Source: Marsupella aquatica
Taxonomy: Eukaryota; Plantae; Marchantiophyta
Length of the DNA: 64,000 bases
NCBI GenBank assembly: GCA_973895155.1
Contig: OZ316893.1
Location: 27,352,210-27,416,209, forward strand
Reading direction: 5' to 3'
The position numbers were made by a program, and so were the translations under genes. Below are positions 1-64,000 of this stretch, one piece after another (the first letter of the stretch is position 1; the number at the start of each line of letters is the position of its first letter). The notes below the pieces were generated by a model. The model was given only the letters and a program-made list of their open reading frames with translations. It did not search any database and had not been told where the DNA came from.

Positions 1-2402
1 TCGGCACAAACATCCGCAATAGTGGGTTTCCAATGCCTAGAACTCCCACCACGAGGATCCCAATTTTCCTTGATTGAGGAGACCCTCTCACAAAGGAATG
101 AAGCATACGCTTCCACAAAGTGTCTCTCATCTTGAGAGTCACAATAAACAAAGCATTTGCGTTGCACCAAGAATGTTGTCTTCATCACTTGACCACCCGA
201 GAAAAATCAAGAATCAAGTCTCCAGCTTCTGACAAGGATTCAATAATCCTCTGTATCATCCGCGTGGGTTTGGCATGTGGATTCACCCAACCACCACGAG
301 CACCAACTATCTCAAATCGAGGGGCCATGTGCAAAACCTTGGTTGCCTCTTCTGGGGTCAGCATCATTTTTAGATCTTCGGGTTTTGACACGTCGTCTGT
401 GTCAACCTTCGCCTTCCCAGTGTCAATCTTGGTGACCTCAAAATCAGTATCTTTTGAACCAAAAAAGAATTTTGGCTTTGGGTGATTGGGTTTGAAAACA
501 TCATTCCAATTGACATTTTTATCTCGAGAAATTCCTGCAAATATAACTTCTTCAATTCCGCCTCCCCAACACGAATCAAGCGGGTGCGGTTGATCCTCTC
601 GAGAATAACTCCCATACTCAATGTGAATGGTGAGAGATTTCTCTTGTCCCAATTTTCTAAGTGAGCTTAGGACATTCATTGCAAGAGGCCCCGGATGAAC
701 AGTTATGGCTACAACGATTGTAAGATTTCATGGTAGCTCCACAATGTATTGCAGAAAGACCAAAACTTCTGCTTCTGTCCACAGCTTCTGGTGATCTCGA
801 CTGAAGTCAACAATGGCAAGTGAGCACGTTGGAGATGATTCTTCTATTGCTGGTGGATCAACTGTTTTCATTAGATTGTCACTAAAGAATGTGACCCACG
901 GTTGGCTCCGAGAATGTGTCCCTCCGCCAAACTTCTGGCAATAAATGTCATCAAGGTGCATCACCAGAGCTATTGGCAAGATTGCACTCTTCCTGGTATG
1001 ATTTGGCTTCAACAGATTTGACAAAAAAACTTCACCAGCCGCTCTTCTGCATCTACTGAATTCTGCATCAACACTCAACAATGGCAGAACCTCTACTACT
1101 TTCTTCCAGTCGGTATCCGACGGGAAATTCCGTGGATCCTTGCCGAAGTAGTACTCTTCAATGAGAGACTTGAGCTTCCTCACTTTTTTCACATCCTTCG
1201 CAAGCTCCTCTATTGAGGGTATGTCAGATTTATTTGTGGCATCTTTCTTCAGCAATGCCTTTCTTGACTTCACTTGTGTCAGGATTTTTGTGATGTCTTT
1301 CTGTGAGATCAACTCACCATCAAAGGGACGAAACATGGCAACGGTAATTGCTTTTTTGGACTTGTTATTTCCTTCCACCCCAGCTCCATCAGGAAGTTTC
1401 CCATGCAACCACATCTCACAGACTAACCGCCACAACTCAAAAAGATGGTTGTCCGCAAAAAGTAGCCAGTATACATTTCGCAAGTCCTTCCTACCCATAG
1501 TCATTCTTGCCAGAGCCAACCAATCCTACAATCCAAAAGGAAAGCTAGTCAGTTATCCCCAACTCAAGGGTTGGAAAAAAAGGATTCTAAGTGCAAAAAT
1601 AGTTTTGGATTCCGATGGTCTCAATCAAAAACAAAACTCGTACTAAACATTCCAAAAGTTCCAATACTCTTTGACAAATCGTGTCGGACTGAGACCATCC
1701 GAATCCAATATAAAATTACTCTCTATGGTAGAGAAATGCACACAAAGTAATCACATTTCTTACCTGAAATTTTTGGTTGTCTTGAGCATTTGTTTTGTTG
1801 TCGCCATGTTTTGGTTTGTTTGGATTTCCACATTCAACAAACTGCCGCCTCGCATGGACAACTGTATCTTTAAAGCAAGACTGAAACACCATCGTGCTAT
1901 TGATGGCGTTCGATCTCATGGAGTGCTCAACAAGAATTGAAGACGGTGTGCGATCAGACAATATTCTGGATTTCCTAAATTCTAACTTCTTGGCCAACTG
2001 GGTGAGCTTGGCATCCTTCGTTGCCCAATCACGAATCCATCTCGCAGCTCTCGTAGAGTGCTGACCACTAACAGCTAGAAATTGGACCTCGCCCTTTTTC
2101 ACTCCGGCCAAAAAAGCCTTTCGGTCCGACTCCGTATTCTCAAAGTGGAGTACCTTTCTTCGCTCGACGTTAAAAGGAATCAAATCAGCGACATGTGGCT
2201 CATGCCCAGGTGTTTTGATCATGGAATCAGCAATGTCTTGCACATGATCAAAATTCATCATCCAATAGCACAGTCTCGTTGGTGCAGCAAAAATACTTTC
2301 AACTGGGATCAGAAAATTTTTGTTTATCTCAAAAGTATAGTATTGCTCCATTTGTTGAAGAACTTCATTCCCTTCTAAGACGTCTTTCTCCTCTGGAACA
2401 TG
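1..2402 (-). pseudogene. ParB/Srx-fold + beta-class DNA amino-methyltransferase-like gene (MTase2), 3' portion; two frameshifts; 5' end displaced by inversion
   Basis: ORF 1716-2441 has a ParB-like strand/helix FLAVSGQHSTRAARWI. GT-AG intron 1763-1526 joins it in frame to ORF 728-1519 (SLAIVDFSR at the motif IV position). Frameshift near 750 leads into ORF 185-679 (VNPHAKPTRMIQRIIESLSEAGDLILDF). One extra T near 203 restores DFFSGG (motif I) and an open frame to the window edge. Confidence 0.75.
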
Positions 2403-4039
2403 TGGCCAAGCAGCCGTCAGCAACATCAAAAGGTAAATCAAAAGCTAAACCTAAACCGCTGAGTGCAAGTGAAATCAAAATGAACAAGCTCTCTGGGCAT
2501 TTCAATTTGAGGGTCTTCAGAGCTCTCCAGGGGCTTTCCAATCAGGAGCATGTGAAGCGACTCCTAAACAGAGTAATTGGAAAGAAAATCACTCTAGAAC
2601 AAATGTTCAAAGAAGGTGAGACACTTAAGAAGTTGGCAAAGGTAAAGAAATTGTTCCTACAGATTTCTGGTCAAAAAGATTGGGCAACATGCCGGGAAAT
2701 GTTTCCCCAGGAAACCGATGTGAAAGTCCTTTCAACTTGGTGCGAAAAGCTCACAGAAGCAGTAAGCACAATGTCCTTATGGCTTTTTGTTTTCAGTTAT
2801 ATATATTCAAAGCAAACATTTGAGATATTGAATGCAGGTAGTGTGACTTGTATCACTGGTGGCATTTGAAATTTGTGTTTGGAAATCTTACAAAGAGTTT
2901 TGTTTAATGTGCAGTTCAAAATCAGTTCAAAGAGGAAGAAAAAAGTCATTTCTGGAAATGAATTTGATGAGGGCGTGGAGGTCAAGATTCCTTCATGCGA
3001 CATCCCCTACGTCTTCAAGAACTATGTTCTTGAAGCAATTGAAAAACACAATCGGAGACTGAATATCTCATCAATTGCTACAGCTTCATCTCAACATCAA
3101 TGGAAGAATGCAAATGGAGACGCATTCTCATATTCTCTTCATGTTGGAGATATTCGGAAACTAGAAACCTTTCTAGAGCCAAAACATTTTACTTTGGCAA
3201 TTGCAGACATCCCGTACGGTTTCAATGCCCCTGGTTCTCAGTTTGACGAGGAACCTTTCACTGAACAGGATGTAAATGAGATGGTTACTAATTTTGCTAA
3301 AATCACCACCTCTCCAATGTGGAGGTTTGTTGTGATCCATTCCTTGCAGCAGACAAATAGCGTTATGAGCGCACTTGAGAAGGTTTGCAATTGCGGAGTT
3401 GAGGCCGGTATATGGGAGAAGACAAACATCCATGAGCACCCTTCTGGGCCAAGGCTAGCTTGGGCCTTTGAGAACTGGTCAATTGGTTATTACAGTGAGG
3501 ATGGAGTCCAAAAGAAGGAGATGTACAATTTTGCTCCTGATGAGTCCAGGGTGAACATTGTGAAAGTTCCCTGTGTTACTACAAAGTCTGTGAGTCCATT
3601 AGGGTTTATTGTAAACCCTTACCAAAAACCAATTGCATTGGGTGATTGGTTTGTTAATCACTTCAGTGAGAAAGGGGACTGGGTGGTAGACCTTTGTTGT
3701 GGAACCGGGTCAACATTGGTGGCTGCACTTCTCAACTCTCGGAATGGGTGTGCTGTTGACAAAGGTGAGACTCAGGTAGAATTTTTGAGGAGTCGGATTA
3801 TGACATTGGAATCTGTTTGGACTCTATACAATGAAGCACAAGTGTCCGGTGAAGGTGGCCAGGGACAAGAAGTTCAGCCTCCGGTTGGTGGGCAGTTGGG
3901 AGTCATTGGTACTAGCATTTATGTGGATACTGATGACCAGGAGGAGCCTGAAGAAAGTGAGCCAAACATTGAAGAAAAGCTACCTAGAACACCAGAGGAG
4001 GATGTCGTGGGGATTCTTTGTTTAGTAAGTTCCTCCTAA
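2402..4039 (+). pseudogene. 5'-truncated duplicate of the ParB-MTase1 gene; intact beta-class N6A/N4C methyltransferase exon 2915-4039
   Basis: Motif IV-like LAIADIPYG precedes the motif X/I region NPYQKPIALGDWFVNHFSEKGDWVVDLCCGTGSTLVAALLNSRNGCAVD, which is the beta-class order. Intron 2762-2914 (GTAAGC...TGCAG) joins in phase 0. Confidence 0.85.
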
Positions 4040-4081
4040 GTATAGCTTAGTAGTATAGGATAGTAGTTTAAATTCTCGCAT

Positions 4082-4320
4082 ATGCAGTCTATAGTGTGCA
4101 TGCTACAGTGCACAACCTACAGTGTGCATGCTACAGTACACGGTCTACAGTATGCATGCTATATTGTTCGATCTACAATGTGCATGCTACAGTGCAAGAC
4201 CTACAGTGTGCATGCTACAGTGTACGATCTACAGTGTGCATGTTACAGTGTACGATCTACAGTGTGCATGCTATAGTGTACAATCTACAGTGTGCATGCT
4301 ACAGTGTACTGTCTACAGTT
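4082..4320 (+). repeat. Minisatellite, 14-bp subunits forming a 28-bp dimer (ctacagtgtgcatg ctacagtgtacgat)
   Basis: Read directly. The mirror copy at ~59975-60240 has about one extra 28-bp unit. Confidence 0.9.
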
Positions 4321-4538
4321 GCTCCACTCACGTAACTACAGTACTAGCACACTTACTTGCCTTGGATGTGTGACACATGGCTTCCATCCGTGTGCCATGC
4401 TTGATCCGTGTGCTTGAGGTGTGAGCACTATAAATAAAGAGGAGAGGGGCTCTCTCCCCTCACTCCCCATTTTTCATCAACTAAGTTGTGAAGTCTTAAA
4501 AATCCATTGGACTTGATGATCTCTTCTATGAATATAAC

Positions 4539-4801
4539 CCTTATGAAGTAGACCCACTCATGCACTCTTGCTTAGAGCTTCGGCTCGGCCAGGGATATTT
4601 TATATGAGTCGGACCTTCAGAAAGTGTTGTCATTTGATAGGAGATGGTTATTAAGTTCTAAAGAGTTGGAAAGTGCTCAACAATGCCTTGACATCATATG
4701 CTCCCTTTTGGGTGAAATCCTTATGAAGTAGACCCACTCATGCAGTCTTGCTTAGAGCTTCGGCTCGGCCAGAGGTATTTTGTATGAGTTGGACCTTCAG
4801 A
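4539..4801 (+). repeat. Two ~82-bp direct repeats 180 bp apart (ccttatgaagtagacccactcatgc...ggaccttcaga), downstream of a TATA-like box at ~4429
   Basis: Copies start at 4539 and 4719. The TATAAATA is followed by a GAGAGGGG...CCCCTC hairpin-like tract. Confidence 0.8.
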
Positions 4802-5177
4802 TAGTATTTTCATTCAAAAGAAGATCAACCTATTAAGATAAACATCTGCATGTATATACTTAGAGTTAACTCAATGCATGATATTTGTTTGAAATGGATG
4901 ATCTTGAATGATTCTATCTCCTGTCATTAGAATGAAAATTAGTTGGATGGAATATTTGATAGTACGATAATGCCCAGACCAGTACCTATTCTTCCTCTCC
5001 CTAATCCTTTCCTTATTAGAATTCATGTACTCCAAAAAGAGATAATGCGCCAGCATATGACTTTTCACTTTGGAGAAGCATTTGCAACTGCGGTATTAAA
5101 TTCAATAGAGCCAATTGTATACCCTTATGTAGGTTACGGGCAGGATTGGGCTTGCACAATTTTTATCTTGTATTGAG

Positions 5178-5387
5178 ATGGATCTCAACAAACCTCCCTC
5201 TGATGAGCCTCCCGTTTCTTTCTCGTTGGGAGATATTCATTTTGTAACTCGACCCAAGGTAGCTGCCAAGGAGGCAATAGTCCGTAGGTATGGAGAAAAG
5301 GGTTATGATGTTGTGCTTTCATCCACGGAACCGTTCCTTGTGGTGTCTGCTACCCGGTCTAGAATAGTAATCATGATCTTAACTTAA
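5178..5387 (+). CDS. Small ORF (69 aa) beginning with an EAR-like DLNxxP motif (MDLNKPP); copy at 58901-59110 (-)
   Basis: ATG-started ORF with DLNKPP. No evidence of expression. Confidence 0.3.
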   Translation: MDLNKPPSDEPPVSFSLGDIHFVTRPKVAAKEAIVRRYGEKGYDVVLSSTEPFLVVSATRSRIVIMILT

Positions 5388-5859
5388 GTTCTCTCTTGAC
5401 ACTAGCAGCCATAGGCCCGATGCTTCCTCAAGAACCACATTTTTCCCCCAGACAACGGGGAACTCAATGATATGTTGTTAGATTAGATGTGTGCAATAAC
5501 ACTATTGAGGATTTATCAACACTAGTGGAAAATAGTGTCCTTAATGACTAGAATGAGGACTGAAAAACGAGTCATATGTACCAATATATGACTAGAGATT
5601 TTCTGTCATACCTGCCTCATCTTTTAGGACAGTCAATTAAGACAAATGACTAAAACTCTCACCAGTCATTTATGGTAGTCCTGAATGACACAATATTTAT
5701 GAAATGACATGTTGTCCTAAATGACTGAATGAACGGCCGTCAGTCATTTAGGCATATCTTTAATGACACATATTTAAACAAATCATATTACAACACGTGG
5801 CAACTACACATGGTTGTCATTTCAGACATGTCATAAATGACATAATAATAAATCATTTA

Positions 5860-6165
5860 AGGTGTCATTTAGTGTGTCATTGAAGGTGTCGTACATGGTG
5901 TCATTAAAAATGTCATACAAGGTGTCATACAAGGTGTCATTGAGGGTGTCATATAGGGTGTCATTGAGAGTGTCATTGAAGGTGTCATTGAGGGTATCAT
6001 ACAGGTTGTCATTGAGGGTGTCATACATGGTGTCATTGAGGGTGTCATACATGGTGTCATTGAGGATGTCATACATGGTGTCATTTAGGGTGTCATACAT
6101 GGTGTCATTGAGGGTGTCATACAGGGTGTCATACATGGTGTCATTGAGGGTGTCATATAGGGTGT
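5860..6165. repeat. Subterminal 12-bp tandem array (ggtgtcattgag/ggtgtcatacat) of CACTA-1
   Basis: Read directly. The same GTCAT core recurs at the other end (21750-22135). Confidence 0.9.
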
Positions 6166-6522
6166 TTTTAAGTAATGTCATTTGGGATGTATCTAAGAAG
6201 AGCTCATAGTTATATTCAAAATCACATACAATGAATCCACTTAAACCCTAAACAAAGACATCCTTTGCGCATCATCATTGTATTAAGAAATTCACACTCC
6301 AACATTCACAAGCTCTAATATAGAATAATTGAAAAAACAGAAGTCATCATTGTATTCAGAAATTCACATTCCGACATTCACAAGCTCTAGTATAGAACAA
6401 TTGAAAAAACAGAAGTCTTTATGATGAAGTGATAGAAAGTACACATTTTTCACTCGCATGAGTGAAACAATGGTAACCAAAATATTCAAAAATTCTCTGT
6501 TCTACATGATCAGAGAAAATGT

Positions 6523-9280
6523 TCAACACTTTCGAAGAAACCTAGCATTCCACAATGTATTCATTCCTAACACATTCCGTAAGCAGAGTTGTTTCTCTTC
6601 TTTGTTGGGCATTGGCAATGCTGCATCACCACAATACACTGCCTTAACTGATACTCGCACCCAAGGACTCTCAATCATGACACAATGAAATTTATCCTAT
6701 CCTGGTAACCCTGTCACTTCACCTCTAGCAACAACTGTAGAGCGATCCACAACGCTTTGTACTTCTACAACATCTCCTTTTGAAAACTGCCACACAAAAT
6801 TGTTAGGACAAAATATTGTCTTGTAGTACTGATTTGGGCATATCATCAATTTAAGAACATAAACCAACTGAAAACAAATTCACCTTTGCTGCTGGATTTG
6901 GGGAGAGAACTGGTCCTCGTTCACTAGGTGAGATAGTGATAGGGGTTGTTTTCTTGAATCTCTTTGAAGGCCTAGGTGGTGTAGCCTCTTGTTCCTTAAT
7001 TGCATTTGACACTATCTGTTCATCTGTGATAGCAATCTCATCACTCTCACCATTACCAATGCTGCTTTGTACAATGCAAGGTTCTTGCAGTGCTCCCAAA
7101 TTTGCTTCTCCCGTACTTGGCTTTGGCTTCTGCCTTGTTAAAGTATCTGATTTCTCTCGCTGTGATACAGGATTCTCCCCTGAAGAAGCTACCACAAAAC
7201 CAAACAATGAATGTTTAGAAAACTTCATTCCAAATTGAAAAATAAATTATTGCATATGTAACATGTTTAGAGTATAAGTTTGTATGTTCTTACCATCACC
7301 ATCACCTGAGAAAGTAAGAGAACGTTTCCTGCTACTACCTTTAGGCTCAACCACCACCTTAGTAGCAATTGCATTTGATAATTGCATATGGAACTGATTC
7401 TGTTGATTTTGTGCAATGAAAGAAGTCATCATAGATGTCAAATTGTCCACTTTGAACTCAAGCTTGGTTAAATTCTCCACAGACTGTTCAAGCTTGAGTA
7501 ATCGAGCTGGTTCCTCAATTGTAGTTTCCCTAGACAGTGGAGTCTACATACACAAACACACCATACAATGTCAATCATCAATAATAATTTGAACATCATG
7601 GATAACTTATAATCAAAATTGAATATATATACAGGTTTTCATTACATACCGCTGATCCATGTGCAGATCCAATTCCAACAAAACTATTGCCTCGATGTTC
7701 ACCACTGCCCATAGATGGACTGATCTGCACTGGGGGGACTGGACTACTAGACACAAGTTTTGATATAACAGGGCTTGTCAATCCTTTTACTTTCTGGAAA
7801 CACATAATCACATTCAAAGCAATTAGAATATTAATGAGAACTCATCATGTCATTGTTTACTCCTATACTAGATAAACACTTCAATTCAAATGACAATCTA
7901 GACCTGCAGTGAGATGGACCATCTAAAGATTCTTACCAATTTTTTTCTGCTCCAGCAGCCCCTCCTCTTCCAAAATGCTCTTTGTTCACCACTTCTGCCC
8001 TCCTTGCTTTCATCACAGCACTCCTTGCAAGCAAAGCAGGACTATCAAAATGATCCACCAGTCGTGCCCATTTCAATGCGTCAACATATTGAGGTCCTGG
8101 TTTGGAGCGATCACGTTTATATACATCCTTCCAATAAGTATTTAGTTTGTGACGTTCTCTTTTCAATAACGTCCGACAGTGACTAATAAATTTCTTGTCA
8201 GACACTGACTGCTTATCTGGATACTCCCAATCTGCCTCCATCAATTTCTGCACATCCTCAATTATGTTTGGATCTTGTTTGTTCCAATCAGGTTGTGATA
8301 CATCAAAAAGCCTCAAGACATTGGCACGTAGCTCCTCCATCCAATATGGTTTATTAGGATGAGAATCATCAATATCATTGTCATGAATCTGATAACACCA
8401 CAAATGATAGTCATCAACATTGAGAATGAAACAAACACCCAATTGCTTCTGAGTACACAAACTGTAGGCCACAAATGTGAAATGTGCAATGAAAATCTTA
8501 CCGTTATCAATTTTCCCTTCTTATTGTCAGCCCTTCTTACACTACCGGTTCTCTGGAATTGTTTTTTGGCTTGCCTAGATTCCCTGCGTTGCTCTGTTGT
8601 AGTCTTTCTTCCCTCTACATACACAATGAACATCCAATATTGATCATCCACAATTGTAAAATGAGGGACAAGAAATATTACAATATAATAGGAGGACGAT
8701 TCATTGAATTTGACTTACCTGAACCCTGACTGGATGTCACTACTGTAGAGTGTCCAGATTTCCCAATCGATGTTGATGGAACCACCACTATACACATGCA
8801 AACCACTGCAATTATGAATCCAACATTCATATAGATCAACATTGAAAAATACATTGAAAATCTTTGAAATTACTTACATTCAAATAGCTGGCTAGTCACA
8901 GGGTCTTTGTAACATTGCACCATGCCACTCATGGAAGGTCCAACCTTTGTAGGGGTTTCTTTTGCATCTGCCAAGCTCTTGGATCAAGTTAAAACCAATG
9001 TTATTAAACAGAATCACTACCAATGTCTATAGTTTCCTCATATTGTTGGTGAATGTAATAGGAATCTCACCTTGGATGAACTTTGTGGTTTCTCATCTTC
9101 ACTGTACTCAGCATCAGTGTCATAATCTGATTCAGAACCCTCATCACCAGACTCTGCCATACTCACTGAGACAATTCTTGATAGTCTGGAGCTCTGTCTC
9201 CTCTGTGTGGTAACCTCACTTCTAGGAGTTCGACGTGCACTTGTTTTCTTCTTGCGCCCTATGGTCTGTGTTGCACCCAA
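6523..9280 (-). pseudogene. Multi-exon TnpA-like gene of CACTA-1
   Basis: Exon ~7933-8400 has W...HFGRGG of the plant Ptta/En-Spm type. Last exon ~6523-6787 reads KGDVVEV..VARGEVTG*..VRVSVKAVY..LPMP..TLW (Tnp1-type C-terminal domain, one stop). Several GT-AG introns. Confidence 0.7.
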
Positions 9281-9665
9281 TCTACATCAGAGAATATCAA
9301 TGAATGAATGACAAGTACCAACAACCAACTCATATTGCTGATGAGCAATATTAACACATCTTTGCACATTCAAAACAACATGCAAGATTATACTCACATG
9401 AAATTGAAATTTTCTCCAAATATCTCCTGAATTTTTTATTGTTGTCTGCTACCTTCTTATTTCGTTCCTCCTCATATGGAGGTATTCGCTGCATTCACTG
9501 CTAGACCATGGCATGCCATGTACGTTAGTATGATCCCACTATCAACTAAATGAAACCGGACTGTACAGTATCTTCAAACCATTCATTTCCTTTTATACTT
9601 TCTTTTTCCTTTGTCTGTAGTACTTGATCCAGGCTCCTGTCTAGTTATATAGGCTTCTGCCAACT

Positions 9666-12600
9666 CTATGTGAACTTAGCATTGTCATCCATAGTATCAT
9701 GGAAATCAACTTCCATGTAATCACCCAGCACCCTTGTAGACCTAGATTCCTTGTGGAGGATTGTCCTCCATGCAATCCCCTTATCATTTGGGTAAAAAAA
9801 CACCTGTTCTATCTGTCGTGGCAATACATAGTCCATTTTCTTGGAAGCACCCAGCTCCTTCTGAAAATTTACTTGCCACAATCCAGACGTATCATATCTC
9901 ATACTTGCTGTGGCTTTGGGAGTCCAAGATGGGTTTGCCCACCTTCTTTTGAAAAGGACCACTTCCTTTATCAGAGGCCCATAGTTCAACACTAAGATGT
10001 CTGTCAACACCCCCACATATTGTACAGATTCATCTACTGTTGCCCCTGACCTAATGACCCGCTTCTCAGTGAATGTACAAGCCATCCCAGAATCAAAAGT
10101 CTTGAACCCAGATGAGTCACAATCAATCAAGGAACCTAGTGATGGAATGGTCCTCCAATGGTGCCCATAGGCTCTGCAGGCCCTGTACCACAGTGCCTTC
10201 AGACTAGGTGGTACACTATACGCTGCCAACACCATTCGTTCAATCTCATTCTCAAAATTATGCCTTCTAATTGTCACTTCAAACCATTCTCTAAAAGGAG
10301 GCAACTCATCCAAATCAGAGGGATAAGGCACAGGATTCCTCCGATTTCCTGGATTCTTCATCCATTCTTTCCGGAAATCTGCTCTGTGCTTGGTAACTGC
10401 CTCCTTTTGATCATCATAAACCCTGCATGGCAAGAATGACAGTCAGCTCCTAGGCCCACACAATTTCTGCTCAAAACTCAATTATGTTTAATAATAAACA
10501 ACAGAGAACTTAACAATATAAACCATGCTCATACCTATACCATGGTTCCACCAGCTCTTCATTCTCTAGTATGTAATGATGCATAGCTATCATATCATTC
10601 CACTCCAAGGTGATATGTTTTCCAGCTCCTTCCAAGACAATGCCTGCAACACCAGGATTCTCCTCCAAGTCCCATGTTCTCATTCCTGTCCCCTTAACAT
10701 CGATCATGTATTCAGAAAGGAATCCTAAAGATTCATCTAGAAGGTAGCCTTCAGCCATAGAAGCCTCTGGACGTGCCTTGTTTCGAACATAACCCTTCAA
10801 GGTCTTTAGATATCTTTCTATTGGGTACATCCATCTAATGTTCACTGGACCACAGATGTCTAGTTCCTGAACCAGATGAATCAACAGATGGGTCATGACA
10901 TCAAAGAAGCTTGGTGGGAAATGAATTTCCATAAGGCAGAGTGTGAATGCAACATCCATCATCACAGAGTCGTACTGTGAGGGATCCCAAACCTTGGCAC
11001 AGATGGTACGCCACACATTGCTCACTCTGGCTATGGCCAACCGAACACCTTCATCAAGTAATCCCATTGTTGCCAATGGAAGGATTTGTTGCATGAGGTG
11101 ATAGAAATCGTGAGATTTCAGCCCTGATAACTTCTTCTTAACTGTGACACATTTAGCCAGAGAACTGCTGAAACCAGTGGGCCCTTTAAAGGTCAACAAT
11201 ACCTCTAAGAACTTAGTCTTCTCTGTCTTACTGAGGCAGTATGGGGCTGGCGGCATGATCTTTGAATCTTTTTTTGGATCTGGATTTGGAACCAGCCACA
11301 GGTGTTCCCGCACGTCCATGACTTTCATGTCTTCTCGAACAGAAGGAGTATCCTTTGTCCCCAAAATAGTGTGCACGATGTTGTGTGCAAGATTCTTCTC
11401 ACAGTGCATGGGATCCAAACAATGGTTGATGAGAAGTTTCTGCATTGGACGCACAGTTCAGTACAAACTAAGTTAGAATAAGAAATGTTACTCCTTGCTA
11501 CTTAACATTAATACACACTGAGGGATTCAGTATGGGAAACCAGATACTTACACTCCAGTACGGCAGCTTGTATAATCCAGTAACCCTCTTCACTCCATTC
11601 TTCTTTACTGGAGAGTTTTCATCATCCAGCGCATTCCCTGGTTTCTTCTCCACATATTTAGCGGCCTTTTCTCCCCAACATTTCCTATCAGAGCTGGACA
11701 CTCTACACGGTGCATCTCGTGCCTCTACCTCACCATTAAAGTATTTTGCCACTTCCTCTTTGCAAAAATAGTGCCTCTGTGGTAACCAGCGACGATGGCC
11801 AGCAAACAGTAACTTGCCCAACTATTTTGAACCATGTGCCACACAATTTGGCCCACAAACCACACATCCTTTGTACCCTGCATGTTGTTGGCCAGAGACT
11901 AATCCATATGCAAGATAATCATTGATTGTCCACAATACTGAAGCCCTTAGCTTGAACTCTTGCTGCAATCCTAGCCTTGGTAGAACATCAAAACAATCTA
12001 CTCCTTCTGACCATAATGTCTCAAGATCATCCACAAGTGGAGCCATGTATACATCAAATTGTTCCTCGCTTACAGACACAGGACCTGGAATTAGAAGAGC
12101 TAGCATGACAAAGAACTTCTTTGTGGAAAGCCAAGGAGGGATATTATAATTCAACAGCAGGATTAGCCATGTAGACCAGGCAGTAGAATTATTCCCAAAT
12201 GGATTTACCCCATCAAGTGCCAATCCCATTCGCACATTCCTTGGCTCAGCAGCAAAAGCAGGGTCGATCTCTGTGTCCACATGTTTCCATGCCTTTGAAT
12301 CTGCTGGATGTCGGACCATGTTGTCCTTGCTCTTGTTCTCATGATGCCAAGTCATTAGCTTAGATGTACCCTTAGTGGCATACAATCTCTTCAATCGAGG
12401 GATTATAGGGAAATATCTCAAGACCTTCACAGGTTGTAAAGAATTCCCCACTAACTTCATCTTTGGCTGATTACACTTGGAACAATTGTCCAACTCTGCA
12501 GTCTCATTTCTAAATAACATACATCCATTCTCACAGACTGGGATTCTCTCATAGTCTAAACCCAATTTTCTCAGTAATTGTTTTGCAGCATATAGGTTTT

Positions 12601-14389: not shown

Positions 14390-14612
14390 TACTATAACAA
14401 ATACAAGAAGCAATAATTTATCCAACCCAAACACTCAATGAAATTCATGCAACAATTTAAGATTCAACTATTTCATACAATCAGATAGTTAGTCCATTTG
14501 AGTTTAGTCCATTAGACAGTGTAGTCCACTTCATACTATAATCAAACATTTAGTCCACTTCATGAATACTTAATACTATGTCGTGTTGTCTACACAACTG
14601 AAGGCTTATGAT

Positions 14613-52059: not shown

Positions 52060-52362
52060 ATGTACATTTGGGCAATGAAAAGTGTACTTTTGGGCTCGAA
52101 AAAGTGTACATTTGGGGATAAAAAAATATACAATTGGTCTAAAGAGTGTATATTTGGGCAATGAAAAGTGTACATTTGAGCATCAAAATATGTACATTTG
52201 GCTTAAAAAGTGTACATTTTAGTACATTTGGCCTAGAAAGTGTACATTTGAGTGAAAAATGGATACATTTGATTTAAAAAGTGTACATTTCAATGAATTT
52301 AGTCTAGAAAGTGTAGCTTTGAGTGCAACAAAGAGTACATTTGACCTAAAAAGTGTACATTT
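52060..52362. repeat. Array of aaaagTGTACAtttg motifs (~21-bp period) downstream of transposase B; candidate subterminal repeats
   Basis: More than ten recurrences of the palindromic core TGTACA. Confidence 0.8.
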
Positions 52363-52583
52363 TCCTGAAAACTTTTATTGTAATCATTTAAAATAAAGAA
52401 ATTAATAAAAAATATTTTTAATTATGCAGAAAAAATAAACATTCATATTCATAATAATCAAAAGTTTAGAAAATGAGTAGATAGTCTACTAAGTAACTTA
52501 ACACTCAATGGCATGGTCTCACAATATATATAACTCTTACATAAAAATTAGTAACTATCTAATTATACCTTAGCTAGTGACAA

Positions 52584-55500
52584 CTAAGTGTACTTGTCCA
52601 TCCTTTGGAGATAACTTTGGACAGCTTGTAGAACATTTCGAGGAATCTTCAAACCTCTGCCAACCATGTTTTCTTCCTTCATTCCAGATTTAAAACCATA
52701 CATTGCAGAATTTGTATACTGCCAATGTTGAGTGTTCTCACCAAATCCTTGATCTCGTTCCCATGTCTTGGTGGACATGAAACAATTGAGATACCTAGCA
52801 CTCTCACTCACATCAAGTTTAGGGTTTAGGCCTCCACCATTCCACGGGGAACATTGGAGCATATTGTTGAGTCAAAGGAGGGTCTCTTGAAGATGCAATT
52901 GGGACTTCATGCTTAGGGTCCACCTGACCCAAAGCTCTCACCAACCAGAAATGACCTCCACCATTTTTCTTCTCCCAATCATCCTCGGGTCGAAGAAACA
53001 CAAAGTTTCCTTCGACAAATATCCTGGAGGGGAATCCACCGTCCTTGTTCTCTCTCAACTCGAGATCCAACAAATGGTGCCGCTTGATCTTCCATTTCTT
53101 CCAAGACTTCATTTTGAAGAGCTGTCATCTCTGCATTCTCCTCATCTTCACTTAGAGGACCACTCTGTTTGCATGCCGATTGGTTGACCTTGTAACAAGT
53201 GCCATGGTTAGTCTTAGGCCAAAATCCATTTTTCAATGGAAATTGATTATTTCCCTCCCCTTCCATTGCAAGCCCATTTGACAACAGCTCCACAATTCTT
53301 TCCCAATATTTAACAAGAGGAAATATTTCCTTGTATGCTATTGACGTCTCATCAATGCAACTCCTTCTCAAAAAATCAAGGTACTTGTTAAGGAATGGGA
53401 TTATCTCTTCTGATTTTTTCTGTATCTCTCCTATGGATTTAGCTAAGGGTTGTCCACTGGGTAAAAGAAGAGAATTTGTTATTGGATCAGTTGCCCAAAT
53501 GCACCTTCCGCCAACGGGAGCCCAAGCTTGCTTAACATGGGACTTATACTGAAATATTGGTAACATTATCTCTCATAGAGAAAAGAAATGATACCGTTTT
53601 TGAGTGACCTTGAATATCTTTGACCTTAAAACTTTGAAGATATTCTTTGTAAGATGCAATTTCTTGTATCAATCTTGGAACTGGATGAATGCTCTCACAT
53701 TCCCAAACCTCTGCCATTAGTGCAAGAAGGGTTGCAACTTCCTTGTGTTGAACTTGATATGATACCTTGGAAAATAGTGCATCAACATCTTCGTGCGTAT
53801 GACCAACCATTAGAAAGGACATTTGAACAGTTTCAACTACTCCTCTACTCAAAGCTCCGAGCAAAATGCCATGACTTTTTGGTTTTTGTTGTCCTTTGCT
53901 GAATTATCGATTTGCAATGTTAGGTGCCTTGGCAAGGGCATGAACAACGGACTGCCCTTCTCGCCACCCACGTCCCCTCCATCATCCTCATCCTGTCGGG
54001 TTGGGATGGTCTCAGTCTGATTGTCGGCAGCTCCATCTTCAGAACCAATATACCTATTTACTTGAATATTCTTTGGTTCCAAATATCCCGACAAAAATGC
54101 ATCAAAGTCAAGTAAGGCTTGAAAGAAAGGTCTGTGAGGTTCCCAATGCAAGCCATCAAGCATGTCACCTGTCTTGTCTCCATTGTACTCTTCAAGATCT
54201 CGAAGACACTTAGCCAAGGATGTCACCATGAAATCTGCATCTCCTGGCCAAAGGCTAGTGACACTAAAGTGTGCATATACTCCTGGATCTCTCCCGTGGG
54301 TCAACATCCTCGTGAGAACAATAGGTAGCGGCATTCCATGACCCGAAAGTGATTTATGAGTACTAATCATTTTTGGAATCCATGTCTTTGCTTGATCCAT
54401 CTTGTCGTGAATAATGCAAAGATATTCTCCTGGATGTTGCTTGGCCATCACTCGATGAGCGTAGTAAACATATCTACGTGACATTTGCTCACAAAGATGT
54501 TGAGCTCTTTTTTCTTCAATTTCAGCACGTTCTTTTTTCCTTCTCTCTCGTATCAAACTGTCTTTGTATTCACAACAAAGCGTACACTTGGCAAATGCGC
54601 CATCCTTGTGAAAACTGAAGTTTGCAAATGATGTGCTCCATATCTTGTAGAGAGTGTTATCCGTAACAGGAGGAAGCCCTTCTTCCTTCATCTTTGTTCT
54701 CACATCTTCCAAAATCTCTAACTTTTTGTAATACGCTGGAAGTCAATACTCAATGCTGTCTGTCCCATGAGCTCCTCCATAAGGCATATGAGGCATTGGC
54801 TCTGCATTTTGAGTCAAAAATGCCTCTAGAAGAGCTCGCGCATGCAAGGTATTTGACCTTGTTTTCTTCAAGCCTGTGTTCCCATGGAACCCAATTTTGC
54901 AACCCTCCATGTATCTTCTCTTGTAATCATAATACTTGGTGTGACTAAAACCATGGATGGTTGCAAATGCATCTTTACAGATGACCATACCTTTGAGAAC
55001 ATGGTGTCCCTTATCACGAACATCATCCTCTCTGTAGTGGAAGAGGTTGAAAATGTGTGATGTTTTGGACTCGCTAGACATCCCGTGAAATTCCATCCTA
55101 ACATCTTCTATATCTTCCCTTGGCATAATGAGACAACATTTATGCTTGCAGCAATTTACTCTTTGATCTCATCAATTGCGGCTTCTGTTGTTTTTGAAAC
55201 TGCCTTGGTTTGCAAGAGCCTCCTTTTCTTCTCAACACGATCAACTTGATTCCTCTTGTTGAAGTTATATGGCCTTTGACGACATCCGGATGCGGATCCA
55301 ACCACATGATCCGGATTCAGATCATCCCTATCCATTGACTCCATATTCTCTGTACCTTCCACCAGAATGTCTGACAAAATTTTTCCAGTTGCTACTAGTT
55401 TTGTGTGATCAATTCGCCATCGAACCAAACTAATTACTCCCTTATGAATGCTTGGAAAGTATTGCGATTCCATGACATCTTTCACAGCAACCCCTACATA

Positions 55501-56389
55501 GTCTTCTCCCAGGATTTCATCATCAACAGCCGTCGTTGCTTGAGGCACAGTGATAGTCCCAGTGGCAACCTTACTCGATCATTCTGAACCAATGTATAAT
55601 TCGACCAACTCTAACATCCAGTTGGACCGTTGGTAATAATCAGAATGAGTTTTGGTCGATTTTGTTGATGGAGAATGTGAGACAAAACTCTCCTCAATTA
55701 AAACGTCGTCGTCACCTTGCTTCTTAGAGGAAGACTTTCTACCTTCATCAACATTCCAACCTTTTTTATGAACATCGGCCAAGTCCCAGAGAACCCATGA
55801 GTCTTTTGCCTCTTCAATTGTTTCAGCCCCATTATGTATGTAAGGTAAAGCCTTACTACCATGAATAACATCAGTGATTTTCACACTGATCCGAGACTCA
55901 CCAAGTAATATGTTGTGACATCGGTCCTTTGGATTTACCTTGAAAATAACTCCAAGGGCTACAAAACACCCATCCATGAGCATTTCAACCTCGTCCCCTT
56001 GCCTTAGAGTGTTTGATGCATCCTCCATAACAATTGTAGGAGATTTATCCAAGTTATTATCTGGTCGAGTTGAACAACTACCAGTACTGATGCGTTTTTG
56101 GGAATCTGGAGTTATAGAGAGATACGTGCACGAGATCTCCCAAATAACACATGAGTCAATGGCATCAAAAATATTTTCTACCCTTGGCAGTGGAAATGGT
56201 AGTTTTTGAGTTGGCTCAAAAACCTTCTCCACGAGCACACCAATTCGATTATCTCCCAACAATACGTTGTGCACCCTATCCTGGGGGTTAATTTTCTGAA
56301 CTGTCCCACAACCGACATCATATCCATCAATTGTCAAGGTCACATCATCACCTCTTGAAAACCTTCCAGTCATTCTTGGATTTAGTAAC
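52584..56389 (-). pseudogene. DUF7869/Sola-like transposase B with three N-terminal Tnp1-like domains; several frameshifts and stops
   Basis: CCKHKCC; VICKDAFATIHG; FAKCTLC; IIHDKMDQ; LQIDNSAKDNKN; FLMVGHTHEDVDALFS; C-terminal FVFLRP...FWLVRAL. Acceptor TGCAG at ~56390. Confidence 0.82.
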
Positions 56390-56489
56390 CTGCACAATTT
56401 TCAGAAAAACTATCACAAATCCGAATGACGAGAATTTGAAGAGACTCACAATTATCCATACGGTCATTTGATTGCCATTCCATGAATCC

Positions 56490-57290
56490 AAACGTTGGCT
56501 CAACTATCACGCTTGGATTGGGGTGGTCCAAATCAAAACCACGAAGATTGTATTCCGAAGGTCCAATTTAAGCATCGCGCTTGAATTGGGATGGTCTGAA
56601 TCCAAACCAACCTCTATCCAACACACCCTCTTGGATTTGGATGGTCTGAATCCAAACCCAGATTGGATCCCAAAGGTCCCAATTCAACAAACGCGCTTGG
56701 ATTGGGATGGTCCGAATCCAAACCCAAATTGCATTTCAAAGGTCCCAATTTAAGCATCGGGCTTGGATTTGGATGGTCCAAATCCAAAACCAGATTGTAT
56801 TTCAAAGGTCCGAATCCAACCCACCATCTTGGATTCGGATGGTCCGAATCCAAACACAGATTGGATCCCGAAGGTCGCAATTCAACAAACCGGCTTGGAT
56901 TGGGATGGTCCGAATCCAAACCCAGATTGTATTTCAAAGGTCCCAATTTAAGCATCGGGCTTGGATTCGGATGGTCCTAATCCAAAACCAGATTATATTT
57001 CAAACGCCCCAATTAAACCATCGCGCTTGGATTGGGATGGTCCGAATCCAAACCGAGATTGGATCCCAAAGGTCACAATTTAAGCATTGCACGCTTGGAT
57101 TTGGATGGTCCGAATCCAACACACCCTCTTGGATTCGGATGGTCCGAATCCTAACCAAGATTGGATTCTGATCAGATGGCCCCAATCCTAGAAAATGGAT
57201 TGGATTTGGATCATCCGAATCCAAACAACAATCTAGGATTAGGACCATTCTAATCCACACATCAGGTCTGGATTCAGATGGTCTAACTCC
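56490..57290. repeat. Array of 21-bp hairpins GGATTCGGA-TGG-TCCGAATCC, mostly ~66-bp period
   Basis: Read directly; lies upstream of, or in an intron of, transposase B. Confidence 0.9.
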
Positions 57291-58141: not shown

Positions 58142-58833
58142 ATGGAAGTTGCCAAGAAAACCGTCATCATCCTGCTCGCCGAAGAATCTCATGACTTGGA
58201 TCTCTCCTCTGTCGATGATCTTGTGGCCCTAGCACTTGGAAATTCCCAAGAATTTCAATCACAAGTCCAAAGTAAGTTTCTGCAGGTTTATTCATGCATC
58301 TTAAGTTGTTGGATTCGGATGGTCCAAATCCAAGTGGGTTGTTTGGATTCGGACCATCCGAATCTGACTGGGTTGTTTGGATTCAGACCATCCGAATCCG
58401 ACAGGCTTGATTGGATTCGGATGGTCCAAATCCAAGAGGGTTATTTGGATTCGGACCATCCGAATCCAAGTGGGTTGTTTGGATCCGGACCATCCGAATC
58501 CGACAGGCTTGATTGGATTCGGATGGTCCGAATGCAAGAGGGTTGTTTGGATTCGGACCATCCGAATCCAAGTGGGTTGTTTGGATTTGGACCATCCAAA
58601 TCCGACAAGCCTGTTGGATTCGGATGGTCCAAATCCAAAAGGGAGGTTTGGATTTGGATGGTCCGAATCCAAGAGCCCTCAATCTCACTTTGACAGTGAT
58701 TTCTTGAAACAAATTTCATGGATTTGAAGTCTAATATGAATTTACACTCTCCAATGCAGAGAGTGATCTGGTGAATACAACTCTCGCCATTTCAGAGGCA
58801 GACTGCGACGATGGGCTCATTTTGGAGGACCAT
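58142..58833 (+). pseudogene. 5' end of the MTase2 gene: exon 58142-58271, intron, exon 58760-58833, cut at the inversion breakpoint
   Basis: MEVAKK...QVQ, phase-1 GTAAGT...TGCAG intron, KSDLV...GLILEDH. The final CAT codon equals the reverse complement of 2400-2402, which continues VPEEKDVLEG in frame. Confidence 0.75.
58311..58670. repeat. About 11 copies of the same 21-bp hairpin at 34-bp period, inside intron 1 of MTase2
   Basis: Starts at 58311, 58345, 58379, 58413, 58447, 58481, 58515, 58549 and onward. Confidence 0.92.
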
Positions 58834-61800
58834 TGTCTGGGGGAAAAATGTGGTTCTTGAGGAAGCACCGGGCCTATGGCTGCTAGTGTCAAGAGAGAAC
58901 TTAAGTTAAGATCATGATTACTATTCTAGACTGGGTAGCAGACACCACAAGGAACGGTCCCGTGGATGAAAGCACAACATCATAACCCTTTTCTCCATAC
59001 CTACGGACTATTGCCTCCTTGGCAGCTACCTTGGGTTGAGTTACAAAACGAATATCTCCCAACGAGAAAGAAACGGGAGGCTCATCGGAGGGAGGTTTGT
59101 TGAGATCCATCTCAATACAAGATAAAAATTGTGCAAGCCCAATCCTGCCCGTAAACTACATAAGGGTATACAATTGGCTCTATTGAATTTAATACCGCAG
59201 TTACAAATGCTTCTCCAAAGTGAAAAATCATATGCTGGCGCATTATCTCTTTTTGGAGTACATGAATTCTAATAAGGAAAGGATTAGGGAGAGGAAGAAT
59301 AGGTACTGGTCTGGGCATTATCGTACTATCAAATATTCCATCCAACTAATTTTCATTCTAATGACAGGAGATAGAATCATTCAACAAAAAGATCATCCAT
59401 TTCAAACAAATATCATGCATTGAGTTAACTCTAAGTATATACATGCAGATATTTATCTTAATAGGTTGATCTTCTTTTGAATGAAAATACTATCTGAAGG
59501 TCCAACTCATACAAAATACCTCTGGCCGAGCCAAAGCTCTAAGCAAGAGTGCATGAGTGGGTCTACTTCATAAGGATTTCACCCAAAAGGGAGCATATGA
59601 TGTCAAGGCATTGTTGAGCACTTTCCAACTCTTTAGAACTTAATAACCATCTCCTATCAAATGACAACACTTTCTGAAGGTCCGACTCATACAAAATATC
59701 TCTGGCCGAGCCGAAGCTCTAAGCAAGAGTGCATGAGTTGGTCTACTTCATAAGGGTTATATTCATAGAAGAGATCATCAAGTCCAATGGATTTTTAAGA
59801 CTTCACAACTTAGTTGATGAAAAATGGGGAGTGAGGGGAGAGAGCCCCTCTCCTCTTTATTTATAGTGTTCACACCTCAAGCACACGGATCAAGCATGGC
59901 ACACGGATGGAAGCCATGTGTCACACATCCAAGGCAAGTAAGTGTGCTAGTACTGTAGTTACGTGAGTGGAGCAACTATAGACAGTACACTGTAGCATGC
60001 ACACTGTAGATCGTACACTATAGCATGCATACTGTAGATTGTACACTGTAACATGCACACTGTAGATCGTACACTGTAGCATGCACACTGTAGATCATAC
60101 ACTGTAGCATGCACACTGTAGGTCTTGCACTGTAGCATGCACACTGTAGATCGAACAATATAGCATGCATACTGTAGACCGTGTACTGTAGCATGCACAC
60201 TGTAGGTTGTGCACTGTAGCATGCACACTATAGACTGCATATGCGAGAATTTAAACTACTATCCTATACTACTAAGCTATACTTAGGAGGAACTTACTAA
60301 ACAAAGAATCCCCACGACACCGTCGTCTGGTGTTCTAGGTAGCTTTTTTTCAATGTTTGGCTCACTTTCTTCAGGCTCCTCCTGGTCATCAGTATCCACA
60401 TAAATGCTAGTACCAATGACTCCCAACTGCCCACCAACCGGAGGCTGAACTTCTTGTCCCTGGCCACCTTCACCGGACACTTGTGCTTCATTGTATAGAG
60501 TCCAAACAGATTCCAATGTCATAATCCGACTCCTCAAAAATTCTACCTGAGTCTCACCTTTGTCAACAGCACACCCATTCCGAGAGTTGAGAAGTGCAGC
60601 CACCAATGTTGACCCGGTTCCACAACAAAGGTCTACCACCCAGTCCCCTTTCTCACTGAAGTGATTAACAAACCAATCACCCAATGCAATTGGTTTTTGG
60701 TAAGGGTTTACAATAAACCCTAATGGACTCACAGACTTTGTAGTAACACAGGGAACTTTCACAATGTTCACCCTGGACTCATCAGGAGCAAAATTGTACA
60801 TCTCCTTCTTTTGGACTCCATCCTCACTGTAATAACCAATTGACCAGTTCTCAAAGGCCCAAGCTAGCCTTGGCCCAGAAGGGTGCTCATGGATGTTTGT
60901 CTTCTCCCATATACCGGCCTCAACTCCGCAATTGCAAACCTTCTCAAGTGCGCTCATAACGCTATTTGTCTGCTGCAAGGAATGGATCACAACAAACCTC
61001 CACATTGGAGAGGTGGTGATTTTAGCAAAATTAGTAACCATCTCATTTACATCCTGTTCAGTGAAAGGTTCCTCGTCAAACTGAGAACCAGGGGCATTGA
61101 AACCGTACGGGATGTCTGCAATTGCCAAAGTAAAATGTTTTGGCTCTAGAAAGGTTTCTAGTTTCCGAATATCTCCAACATGAAGAGAATATGAGAATGC
61201 GTCTCCATTTGCATTCTTCCATTGATGTTGAGATGAAGCTGTAGCAATTGATGAGATATTCAGTCTCCGATTGTGTTTTTCAATTGCTTCAAGAACATAG
61301 TTCTTGAAGACGTAGGGGATGTCGCATGAAGGAATCTCGACCTCCACGCCCTCATCAAATTCATTTCCAGAAATGACTTTTTTCTTCCTCTTTGAACTGA
61401 TTTTGAACTGCACATTAAACAAAACTCTTTGTAAGATTTCCAAACACAAATTTCAAATGCCACCAGTGATACAAGTAACACTACCTGCATTCAATATCTC
61501 AAATGTTTGCTTTGAATATATATAACTGAAAACAAAAAGCCATAAGGACATTGTGCTTACTGCTTCTGTGAGCTTTTCGCACCAAGTTGAAAGGACTTTC
61601 ACATCGGTTTCCTGGGGAAACATTTCCCGGCATGTTGCCCAATCTTTTTGACCAGAAATCTGCAGGAACAATTTCTTTACCTTTGCCAACTTCTTAAGTG
61701 TCTCACCTTCTTTGAACATTTGTTCTAGAGTGATTTTCTTTCCAATTACTCTGTTTAGGAGTCGCTTCACATGCTCCTGATTGGAAAGCCCCTGGAGAGC

Positions 61801-61920
61801 TTTGAAGACCCTCAAATTGAAATGCCCAGAGAGCTTGTTCATTTTGATTTCACTTGCTCTCAACGGTTTAGGTTTAGCTTTTGATTTACCTTTTGATGTT
61901 GCTGACGGCTGCTTGGCCAC
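58833..61920. repeat. Right arm of the 3.05-kb inverted duplication
   Basis: Reverse complement of 2402-5455. Confidence 0.95.
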
Positions 61921-63778
61921 GATTGGCTTTGTTTGACCAAGGATCTCAAACTTTTGCCACATAGAGAAAATTTTATCTTGGAGCTCCCAAATCTCCCCAG
62001 ATCGAAAGGCAATCTGAAATGTAGGGTCATGTTTGGCCATTGAGTCACGAACACCTGGAGTGTAATCAAGCATACATTCCTTACAACAAGCTTCTCGCAC
62101 CTCTTTAGTTGACCCCACATTCATTTCCATGAAAATATTGTGACAGGCACAAACTTTGTCAATCGATGTCATGGTTTTACGGTACTCCTGGTCGTAGTTA
62201 TGCTGGAAAGCCAGCATCCTGATCTCATGTCTCGTTAGACCAGAGTAAACCCATGCCTCAATCTCACCGTACACTTGCTTTCCATACATTTTGAAAAGTT
62301 CAGCCTTTGCACGAGCTCCATGATTACCGCCAATCACTCGATACTTCCATACCCTAGATTTAGTAATGTCCCACTCATGAATTGTGGGACAATCTGTTGG
62401 ATCAACTACAACAACAAATGGAGCCGTGAAGTTGGAAGGGTTTTTCATGAGCAACATTTTGATGTTCTCTACATGTAGCCAATCTACAGGTCTAACTAAA
62501 GTTGAATTCTCACCCTCATCTTCAAAAATGAGATTATTGACATGCAGAAGCACACTGGTCCTCTAGACTCTGCGTTCAAGCATGAGCTTTGCAAGTTCAG
62601 CCTTGATGGCATCTGTCTCAAATGAAGCCAACGGCGTCTCTTCTTCCTCATCTCCCTGAAAAATAACATGGCTTGCAATGAATTTTAAGAAGAATTCAAA
62701 ATGCAAACCATTTTCATTATTTCAATGCAATGCGCGATACAAGTATCGCTCCCAACATTCATTTTTGCTAGACAAATAAACTTACCAGGGGAATGCTAAC
62801 AACAGCTGAGGTTGGACCTGAGGTAAGGGGTAATCGTTCTTTGGATTGATGCATTGACACAGCTGGAGTGCTTATTGCACCACTTGAATCTGCAGCTAGA
62901 GCTACTCCTGTGCCTCCAATCCAACCAGTCCTCTTCTTCTTTGCAAGTGAAGTTGATGGCGATGGAACCTCTGCCTCGACAGGTACCAATTCATCCACAA
63001 CTCCCCTTCCACAACCTCTTCCACGACCACGACCTCGACCACGACCAACACTTGCAGTAGCGCTTGGGCTTGCCTCTACAGATTGAGGTGCTTCACCTAG
63101 AATCACTCTCATGGTAGCTTTTACTTGGGAATTCCCTTTCCCATGTCCCCCGCTCCCACTAGCACAATCAACTCCTTTTGCAACTGAAGATGTGCCACTC
63201 CCGCTAATGGTTGGCTTCCTTACTTTGATCCTTTGTGTGGGTTTAAACTCTTCACCCACGAGTCTCTTATACTCTTTTTGGACAAACGGCAGCATCAAAG
63301 GACTCAAATCATCCACAACATTAGCAACCCACTCAGGCTTGAAGATCTCCATCTCAATTGTACTCGCAACTTCCTTCACAATAGGGTCTTCGGGAAATTT
63401 GTCTAATGTTGAGAGATCATACAAATCCATGTCCACGACAAGGGCCACAAAACCCTTGCTTCTACACATTGTGAGGAAGCTCAATCCAATAGCGATAGAG
63501 TTTTCCTTCCCATGACCCTTCTTAAAGTCACATGCGGCAACCCCAATTACTGGACCAAAGGAGAGTGTAATCTTCTCTGTTTTCTTCACTTGAACCCAAA
63601 GAACGGGTGTCTCCCAGTCAGCTGCTTCCTTGGACAGCATTCGAGTATCCCGAAAGTACCAAGGTCTCCTCACAAACTTTTGTTCATCACAAATATCTTT
63701 TGTCGTCCAAATCACATTACACAAAGTTGTCATGAGGTTCTCGATCTCAACAGACCCTGTCCTTGCACTTCCTTCCAT
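60283..63778 (-). pseudogene. Full-length ParB-MTase1 gene, join(63778-62786, 62655-61561, 61407-60283), ~1070 aa, one in-frame TAG at 62563-62565
   Basis: N-terminal domain with RG repeat and KKKR; ParB/Srx-like LVRPVD..HVENIK...YRVIGGNHGARA...AWVY...LAFQHN; helical linker; MTase with DIPY and DLCCGTGST. Both introns are GT-AG, phase 0. Confidence 0.85.
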
Positions 63779-64000
63779 TGTTTTCCTTTGGCAGATCAAA
63801 TTTGAGATCTACACTGCTTGATCAATCCCACGAGCGATACAAGTATCGCGCTTTGCTTTCTTCTGAATACGGCATCCAAGTTGCTTTCTATTGGGTCCAA
63901 GAACCTTGAGCAGTGGCGTCTGTTGGGAGCTGCTATCGATTCTCATGCGGTTCTAATCCAGCAAGGGTCAAGGCTATCGTTGTCCATCTGCACAATGACA

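Follow-up and report, generated by a model that had tools for sequence, protein, structure and literature searches.

The stretch of DNA analysed here, called the window throughout, comprises 64,000 nucleotides of contig OZ316893.1 (positions 27,352,210 to 27,416,209, forward strand) in the GenBank assembly GCA_973895155.1 of Marsupella aquatica (Marchantiophyta). It carries two pairs of genes, termed units A and B, each consisting of a DUF7869 transposase and a protein in which a ParB-like part is joined to a DNA amino-methyltransferase (MTase). In a Pfam scan N6_N4_Mtase is matched twice, at 2870-4036(+) and at 60286-61452(-), and once more below threshold, at 185-724(-). The same scan matches DUF7869 at 22296-23981(-), with E 4e-50, and at 53852-54742(-), with E 7e-10, in agreement with the gene types and coordinates of an initial annotation made from the letters of the window. 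We consider, with a probability of about 0.65, that these are two unrelated, decayed DDD transposons, in each of which a ParB-MTase encoded on the opposite strand would bind the element's own palindromes, in the unit-A family write N6-methyladenine (6mA), and aid persistence under silencing by 5-methylcytosine (5mC). The anatomy of the elements is much surer than this activity.

In unit A, ParB-MTase1 (60320-63778, minus strand) has three exons (63778-62786, 62655-61561 and 61407-60320) and displays the motifs GGNH, DIPY, QKP and DLCCGTG. Splicing was assigned from GT-AG sites, reading frames and conserved intron position, the second intron occupying the same position in close metagenome relatives. 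The 5' end of the gene may lie beyond the window. The last exon is split by a solo long terminal repeat (LTR) at 4003-5454(+), with TG..CA ends and a 4-bp target-site duplication (TSD), ACGG, at 5455-5458 and 60323-60320. The true last codons and stop are found at 5455-5486(+), giving a C-terminus that resembles that of homolog P0002. Without the solo LTR the frame covers 1067 amino acids, including the tail at 5459-5486, with one internal stop; a premature TAG is located at 62565-62563. When the transposon CACTA1 is also removed, 165 nt separate the MTase1 stop from that of transposase A and the genes are tail-to-tail. The initial annotation overlooked the solo LTR, ended MTase1 at 4039 instead of 5486 and so placed it some 1.6 kb from transposase A.

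The core of transposase A (22293-24782, minus strand) has an intron from 24024, one stop and a poly-A frameshift. Three acidic motifs, DGMD, QLDN and GHTHDQID, follow patterns present in 86, 68 and 108 of 120 homologs, respectively, and would form the catalytic DDD triad. The identity of this gene was correctly assigned at the outset; its extent was not, as the coding region continues across two insertions to approximately 38276. A coding piece at 34513-34619(-) lies between them, and the 5' frame with its upstream region occupies 37160-38800(-). With CACTA2 (24783-34509, plus strand, TSD ATT) and another solo LTR (34620-37154, plus strand, TSD TGATA) taken out, the frame remains open over 465 codons; perfect TSDs bound both insertions. 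The best named homologs come from Ceratopteris, Adiantum and Riccia, and a protein atlas search with transposase A returned only DUF7869 clusters.

The accessory protein is predicted to comprise a ParB-N fold, a helical DNA-binding region and a beta-class amino-MTase. An AlphaFold model based on a 149-sequence alignment has a pLDDT of 86. The C-terminal domain matches CcrM with an E-value of 3e-13, and the folds overlay with Z 23.2 and an rmsd of 2.9 over 221 aligned residues. The N-terminal part of the same predicted model superposes on the ParB-like domain of PadC (Z 9.3, rmsd 2.5, 95 aligned residues), on a Pnob8-like ParB-N (Z 8.8, rmsd 5.2, 210 aligned, model residues 19-329) and on KorB (Z 8.1). 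The ParB/Srx and N6_N4_Mtase folds anticipated in the initial annotation are the ones predicted. The N6_N4_Mtase match of the protein exceeds the Pfam cut-off; Pfam gives no ParB match in it, and the Z values for ParB/Srx folds are middling. In P0001, DIPY at 515 precedes DLCCGTG at 676, so that motif IV comes before motif I in a permuted order. Of 64 homologs, 35 have GGNH as their ParB motif. Chromosomal ParB proteins carry the CTPase motif GxxRxxA; GxxR is absent among the motif types seen in the 64 homologs, and clamp sliding is therefore not to be assumed.

A word-based protein search with a 791-amino acid read-through gave no match, and homologs were gathered with a HMMER search (686 matches at E<=0.001). 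In the metagenome set there are 80 ParB-MTase loci, of which four (L008-L011) are 68-70% relatives and 52 are more distant and eukaryote-like. In three of the four relatives (L009, L010 and L011) the ParB-MTase has an A-family transposase placed tail-to-tail with it, at gaps of 316, 341 and 469 nt; the contig of L008 ends before the transposase position. The four are 70-81% alike in DNA and are on that account distinct copies within one sample. Linkage of the gene pair is firm in the unit-A clade. In the MTase domain, all six pairs among the window and L008-L010 give pN values of 0.11-0.21 against pS values, which are saturated, of 0.75-0.89, and at sequence level the domain is under purifying selection in this group.

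Named homologs, from 30 proteins looked up, include six in Chara, four in Riccia, two in Adiantum plus one cluster member, one in Ginkgo and one Holothuria cluster member. Linkage is suggested in Riccia, where the distances from the four ParB-MTase genes to the closest of at least 42 DUF7869 genes are 1, 6, 98 and 101 locus tags. R1sor_010796 adjoins R1sor_010795 (DUF7869) by locus tag and R1sor_014303 is six tags from R1sor_014297 (DUF7869); adjacency among four genes has a chance of about 1.3% under a uniform model with an incomplete DUF7869 list. Since the tail-to-tail pair recurs in three contigs and the gene is multi-copy in Chara, Riccia and Adiantum, MTase1 is not the single-copy syntenic host gene that the initial annotation had allowed for. 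Viral contigs hold seven weak MTase loci, none with a transposase, and neither transposase matched there.

Unit B is interrupted by an apparent inversion. The 5' part of ParB-MTase2 (58142-58833, plus strand) consists of an exon (58142-58271), an intron (58272-58759) with 11 copies of the unit-B palindrome, and a further exon (58760-58833). The 3' part (1-2399, minus strand) comprises an exon (2399-1764), an intron (1763-1526) and an exon running from 1525 past base 1; it matches the family profile with an E-value of 2.9e-9. With the inversion undone, the two 5' exons join the segment 2399 to 186(-) in frame, in one of three registers, to give 726 amino acids with one stop; the other two registers have at least 40 stops. 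This join, together with the same palindrome on both sides of the break, bears out the earlier placement of the MTase2 start at 58142. A stop at 728-730 and a 1-nt frameshift near 205 both precede motif I. MTase2 is remote from MTase1 (17% identity over 433 columns) and its middle region gave no usable match in the protein atlas.

Transposase B (52584-56389, minus strand) retains DKMD, QIDN and GHTHEDVD, has several stops and frameshifts, and is 21-28% identical to long homologs of transposase A over most segments. Its N-terminus, at 55156-56400(-), contains a segment repeated twice and is weakly matched by Transposase_23 (E 0.008). A tandem array of the 22-bp GTACATTT at 52057-52363, just downstream of transposase B, is a possible subterminal region of unit B. 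Once the inversion is undone the two genes of unit B are head-to-head, and the ParB and N4/N6-MTase gene is opposite the transposase in both units, as it is directly in L009-L011. The earlier observation that both gene types are adjacent twice, with different sequence, orientation and repeats, therefore stands: tail-to-tail in A, head-to-head in B, each with a palindrome of its own.

The unit-A palindrome, GCGATAC-NN-GTATCGC, is present in eight copies against an expectation of 0.06. Every one of them falls in unit A, and they extend from the upstream region of transposase A to that of MTase1. Five are upstream of or at the 5' end of transposase A (37562, 37673, 37781, 38469 and 38785), one lies between the two stop codons (22226-22241), and two are at MTase1 (62734, in the intron between exons 1 and 2, and 63834). 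The core recurs in 34 copies in all four close metagenome relatives, against none expected. The unit-B palindrome, GGATTCGGA-NNN-TCCGAATCC, has 25 copies against 0.01 expected; twelve form an array at 56500-57290, in the stretch that separates the 5' end of transposase B from that of MTase2, and others occupy introns to either side of the inversion break. A second ParB-MTase clade has a related, N3-spaced palindrome in 45 copies, with at least three in 6 of 29 loci. Arrays of CGAT[A/G]C-NNN-G[T/C]ATCG adjoin the ParB-MTase of this clade in L014, L016, L020, L021, L029 and L060; no transposase is present within these six contigs.

Palindromes of such size suit a dimeric ParB-type binder, as for parS, and the sequence patterns suggest that the ParB part of the accessory protein recognises them as parS-like candidate sites. 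They could be transposase sites instead, with which their positions in introns and between genes fit less well. A ParB dimer would bind GCGA[T/G]AC-NN-GT[A/C]TCGC in unit A and the GGATTCGGA-NNN-TCCGAATCC site in unit B; the MTase domain, in the unit-A family, would add 6mA near the palindromes; and the mark, or the bound protein, would help the element to stay transcribed or mobile against 5mC silencing by the host. The observed/expected ratio of CpG is 0.43-0.62 in all four element genes against 0.81 in a neighbouring dioxygenase gene, a depletion consistent with past host methylation.

Several observations count against two self-marking transposons. All four genes are pseudogenes. Scans for terminal inverted repeats (TIRs) and TSDs and repeat searches found no element ends and no 4-bp TSD in the window, and one end of each unit lies outside it. 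The DIPY of MTase1 departs from canonical DPPY, and motif IV of MTase2 reads DFSR, its DFFSGG appearing only after the frameshift. The pairing in unit B has no outside example and its basis is adjacency and the shared palindrome. In Riccia, two of the four homologs have no listed DUF7869 gene closer than about 100 tags. DUF7869 was found at 0 of the 52 distant eukaryote-like ParB-MTase loci, eight of which have 2.0-4.2 kb of downstream sequence, and palindrome arrays with N2 or N3 spacing were found in none of 20 Ginkgo-like loci; part of the family is therefore unlinked or domesticated.

Three questions follow. Is the accessory protein catalytic at all? If it is, which base would it modify? 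Are the two genes associated by more than chance?

A non-catalytic DNA-binding or structural protein, whose ParB part holds the palindromes and so helps to pair the ends or shield the element, and whose MTase fold serves as a reader or survives as a relic, is unlikely, and is the best supported of the alternatives. With DFSR at motif IV, MTase2 is an unlikely writer, and probably not one; in the tree it shares a long branch with a Holothuria protein in which motif IV is DMPQ (P0300, HOLleu_02510, a sea-cucumber ParB-MTase homolog). The deep nodes of that tree (FastTree, midpoint-rooted, 54 chosen sequences) are weakly supported, and it served solely for grouping clades. A third of the homologs aligned (25 of 75) depart from DxPY, and MTase domains borne by DIRS1 elements are thought inactive, as stated in the available part of PMC4738411. 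Against this, motif IV, QKP and the SAM-binding motif are kept under purifying selection in MTase1 and its close relatives, and the predicted fold overlays active beta-class enzymes with Z values of 19-23.

Synthesis of N4-methylcytosine (4mC) instead of 6mA, as by DN4MT1 and N4CMT, is improbable. The same predicted fold does match N4CMT (Z 19.7) and PvuII (Z 19.2), and the beta-class domain has switched specificity repeatedly according to the portion of PMC8885841 to hand. N4C enzymes typically have serine first in motif IV, as noted in PMC4738411 so far as its available text goes, and DN4MT1 has TSPPY; motif IV is DxPY in 50 of the 75 homologs and Ser-first in none. By that rule 6mA is favoured, and for MTase1 the motif makes 4mC less likely than 6mA. 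The initial proposal of a 6mA/4mC writer would for MTase1 favour 6mA, and it probably does not extend to MTase2.

A third alternative, a ParB-MTase gene that belongs to the host or moves independently and came to lie beside DUF7869 by chance in a repeat-rich region, is marginally less probable again. Most distant homolog loci have no DUF7869 nearby (L023 is near a dehydrogenase-like open reading frame (ORF)), no termini were found in the window, and nested repeats are dense throughout the region. Against it, the gene pair keeps one relative orientation, with a gap below 500 nt, both in the window and in three diverged contigs; a shared palindrome runs through both genes, and one Riccia pair is adjacent. 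Bacterial contamination is ruled out by introns, plant-type LTR and CACTA neighbours and eukaryotic homologs, and a single giant element by the different palindromes, the distant transposases and a host-like dioxygenase gene in between.

The reading of two self-marking transposons can be widened to giant Sola-type transposons in land plants, animals and algae, in which ParB would read a family palindrome with a co-evolving spacer (N2 here, N3 in the sister clade) and 6mA would resist silencing. This generalisation is tentative and, in our estimate, has less than an even chance of being right. If true, DNA 6mA in plants would have a mobile source, and the Ginkgo-like clade would hold its domesticated descendants. 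That clade (L018, L027, L031-L049 and P0011) is 43-55% identical to Ginkgo Gb_37443 and has extra introns; its loci show neither palindrome arrays nor a nearby transposase, and it is a candidate for a domesticated gene in seed plants.

The window is crowded with eukaryotic repeats, including two CACTA elements and LTR pieces, and its GC content per kb varies from 34 to 56%. The nested-insertion reconstruction of the initial annotation is sound. CACTA1 (5520-22157, minus strand, EnSpm-type) has a 3-bp TSD, CAA, and encodes Tnp2, DUF4218, DUF4216 and an NSD-like PHD-finger ORF at 14613-15467(-) (E 5e-9). Public contigs were compared with the window over 4300-24299, and in all four sequencing runs contigs join 5516 to 22158, so that the empty site of CACTA1 exists as DNA. 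Summed contig depth, which is not a measure of copy number, is high over 4300-5633, the region of the MTase1 solo LTR. A tandem array with a 408-bp unit lies at 19091-21317 in CACTA1, and a small inverted-repeat insertion at 19849-20195 within the array. CACTA2 has a SET-domain exon at 29066-29881 (E 6e-6) directly upstream of Tnp2, a further minus-strand ORF cluster and subterminal TTCGCA repeats. Chromatin domains are therefore present on both CACTA elements. The sequence TGTCAGGGTGAC, at 26290 and 44074, was rejected as a candidate for element ends; it has no TSD and the copy at 26290 sits inside CACTA2.

Inside MTase2, at 2402-4002(+), is a duplicated 1.6-kb 3' piece of ParB-MTase1 that differs from 61920-60320 at 10 of 1601 nt. 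The longer segments 61920-58830 and 2402-5458(+) are inverted copies at 97.8%, and include a second copy of the MTase1 solo LTR at 58834-60319(-), 94.9% identical to 4003-5454. The trinucleotide CAT is found at both sides of the break where the piece entered MTase2. An LTR would have inserted at the 3' end of MTase1; MTase2 would then have received a copy of a piece of some 3 kb made up of MTase1 and LTR; and the 53 kb that lie between these inverted copies would finally have flipped, either as a real inversion or as an artefact of assembly across the 3-kb inverted repeats. The interval 39124-43354 holds truncated pieces of Copia-like and Gypsy-like retroelements, and the LTR that begins at 41284 shows about 74% similarity to the solo LTR of 34620-37154. 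Between units A and B, at about 45000-46470(-), is an intron-bearing 2OG-Fe(II) dioxygenase gene (DIOX_N and 2OG-FeII_Oxy), likely a host gene, with the least CpG depletion among the genes tested.

Comparison with known systems starts from two assumptions of ours, that DUF7869 is a Sola1-type transposase and that the suffix of the element name Sola1-1_PPa stands for Physcomitrella patens. Units A and B are likely Sola1-type. The closest published parallel is Sola1-1_Ec32 of Ectocarpus (PMC12477816, of which part was available), a 21.5-kb element with a 282-bp TIR, a 4-bp TSD and a 1104-amino acid ParB and N4/N6-MTase protein opposite the transposase. Like the units in the window it is a large DNA transposon with an opposite-strand ParB and MTase of similar length (1067 amino acids here), and nested insertions are common in the giant families of Ectocarpus as they are in the window. 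Self-modification was proposed there, with green and red algal parallels, and the best protein match of the element is Sola1-1_PPa; a review (PMC10741241, likewise from its available text) records Physcomitrella as a bearer of Sola elements. The systems differ in host, a brown alga as opposed to a land plant, and in that the ends of the algal element are known; the comparison is one of published description, and palindromic sites are not mentioned in the accessible portion of the algal paper. Since this design was already published, the new transposon family of the initial annotation is better described as a land-plant member of a recently described design. The rest of that description, of large DNA transposons with an intron-bearing, prokaryote-type ParB and beta-class amino-MTase, is supported by gene content, linkage and folds.

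A second parallel, from a red alga, is offered by the Plavaka accessory genes PAG2 and PAG3 of Bostrychia, which encode N6-adenine methylase (PF01555) and ParB domains (bioRxiv 10.1101/2025.02.11.637652, as far as its available text goes). There also inverted-repeat arrays beside the ParB gene are proposed as binding sites; the transposase is of the EnSpm/Plavaka type, however, and the fusion partner is a 2OG oxygenase for ParB and SET for the methylase. CcrM, M.MboIIA, M.RsrI and phrog_67 resemble ParB-MTase1 in domain order, fold and motif order, and P0292, a ParBc and N6_N4 protein, scores against the family profile. Phage and bacterial ParB-MTases are only 15-24% identical to ParB-MTase1, which has introns and a transposon context, and the search for a close prokaryotic donor gave at best a partial phage match (E 8e-6). 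Marchantia DN4MT1 and bdelloid N4CMT are likewise prokaryote-derived beta-class amino-MTases in eukaryotes; as described in the parts of the literature at hand, they are domesticated host 4mC writers lacking ParB, DN4MT1 with TSPPY where the transposon cargo has DIPY.

No land-plant Sola element with ParB-MTase cargo, and no use of the term DUF7869, was found in the literature searched, a search that left Repbase/Dfam, the 2011 Iyer chapter and preprint supplements outside its range. Within that literature the land-plant members, the purifying selection on the MTase and the candidate parS-like site are new. Land plants are thereby added to an algal design of transposon-borne ParB-methylases, for which the available portions of the algal papers report no test, and a concrete 16-bp candidate site makes both binding and 6mA writing directly testable. 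The nearest functional analogy is VANDAL/VANC, in which an accessory protein acts on its own element (bioRxiv 10.1101/2025.02.11.637652, in the part available); the protein is unrelated and VANC causes loss of methylation. If active, the enzyme described here would give plants a DNA adenine writer encoded by a transposon, and would stand beside VANDAL/VANC as a second type of self-directed anti-silencing.

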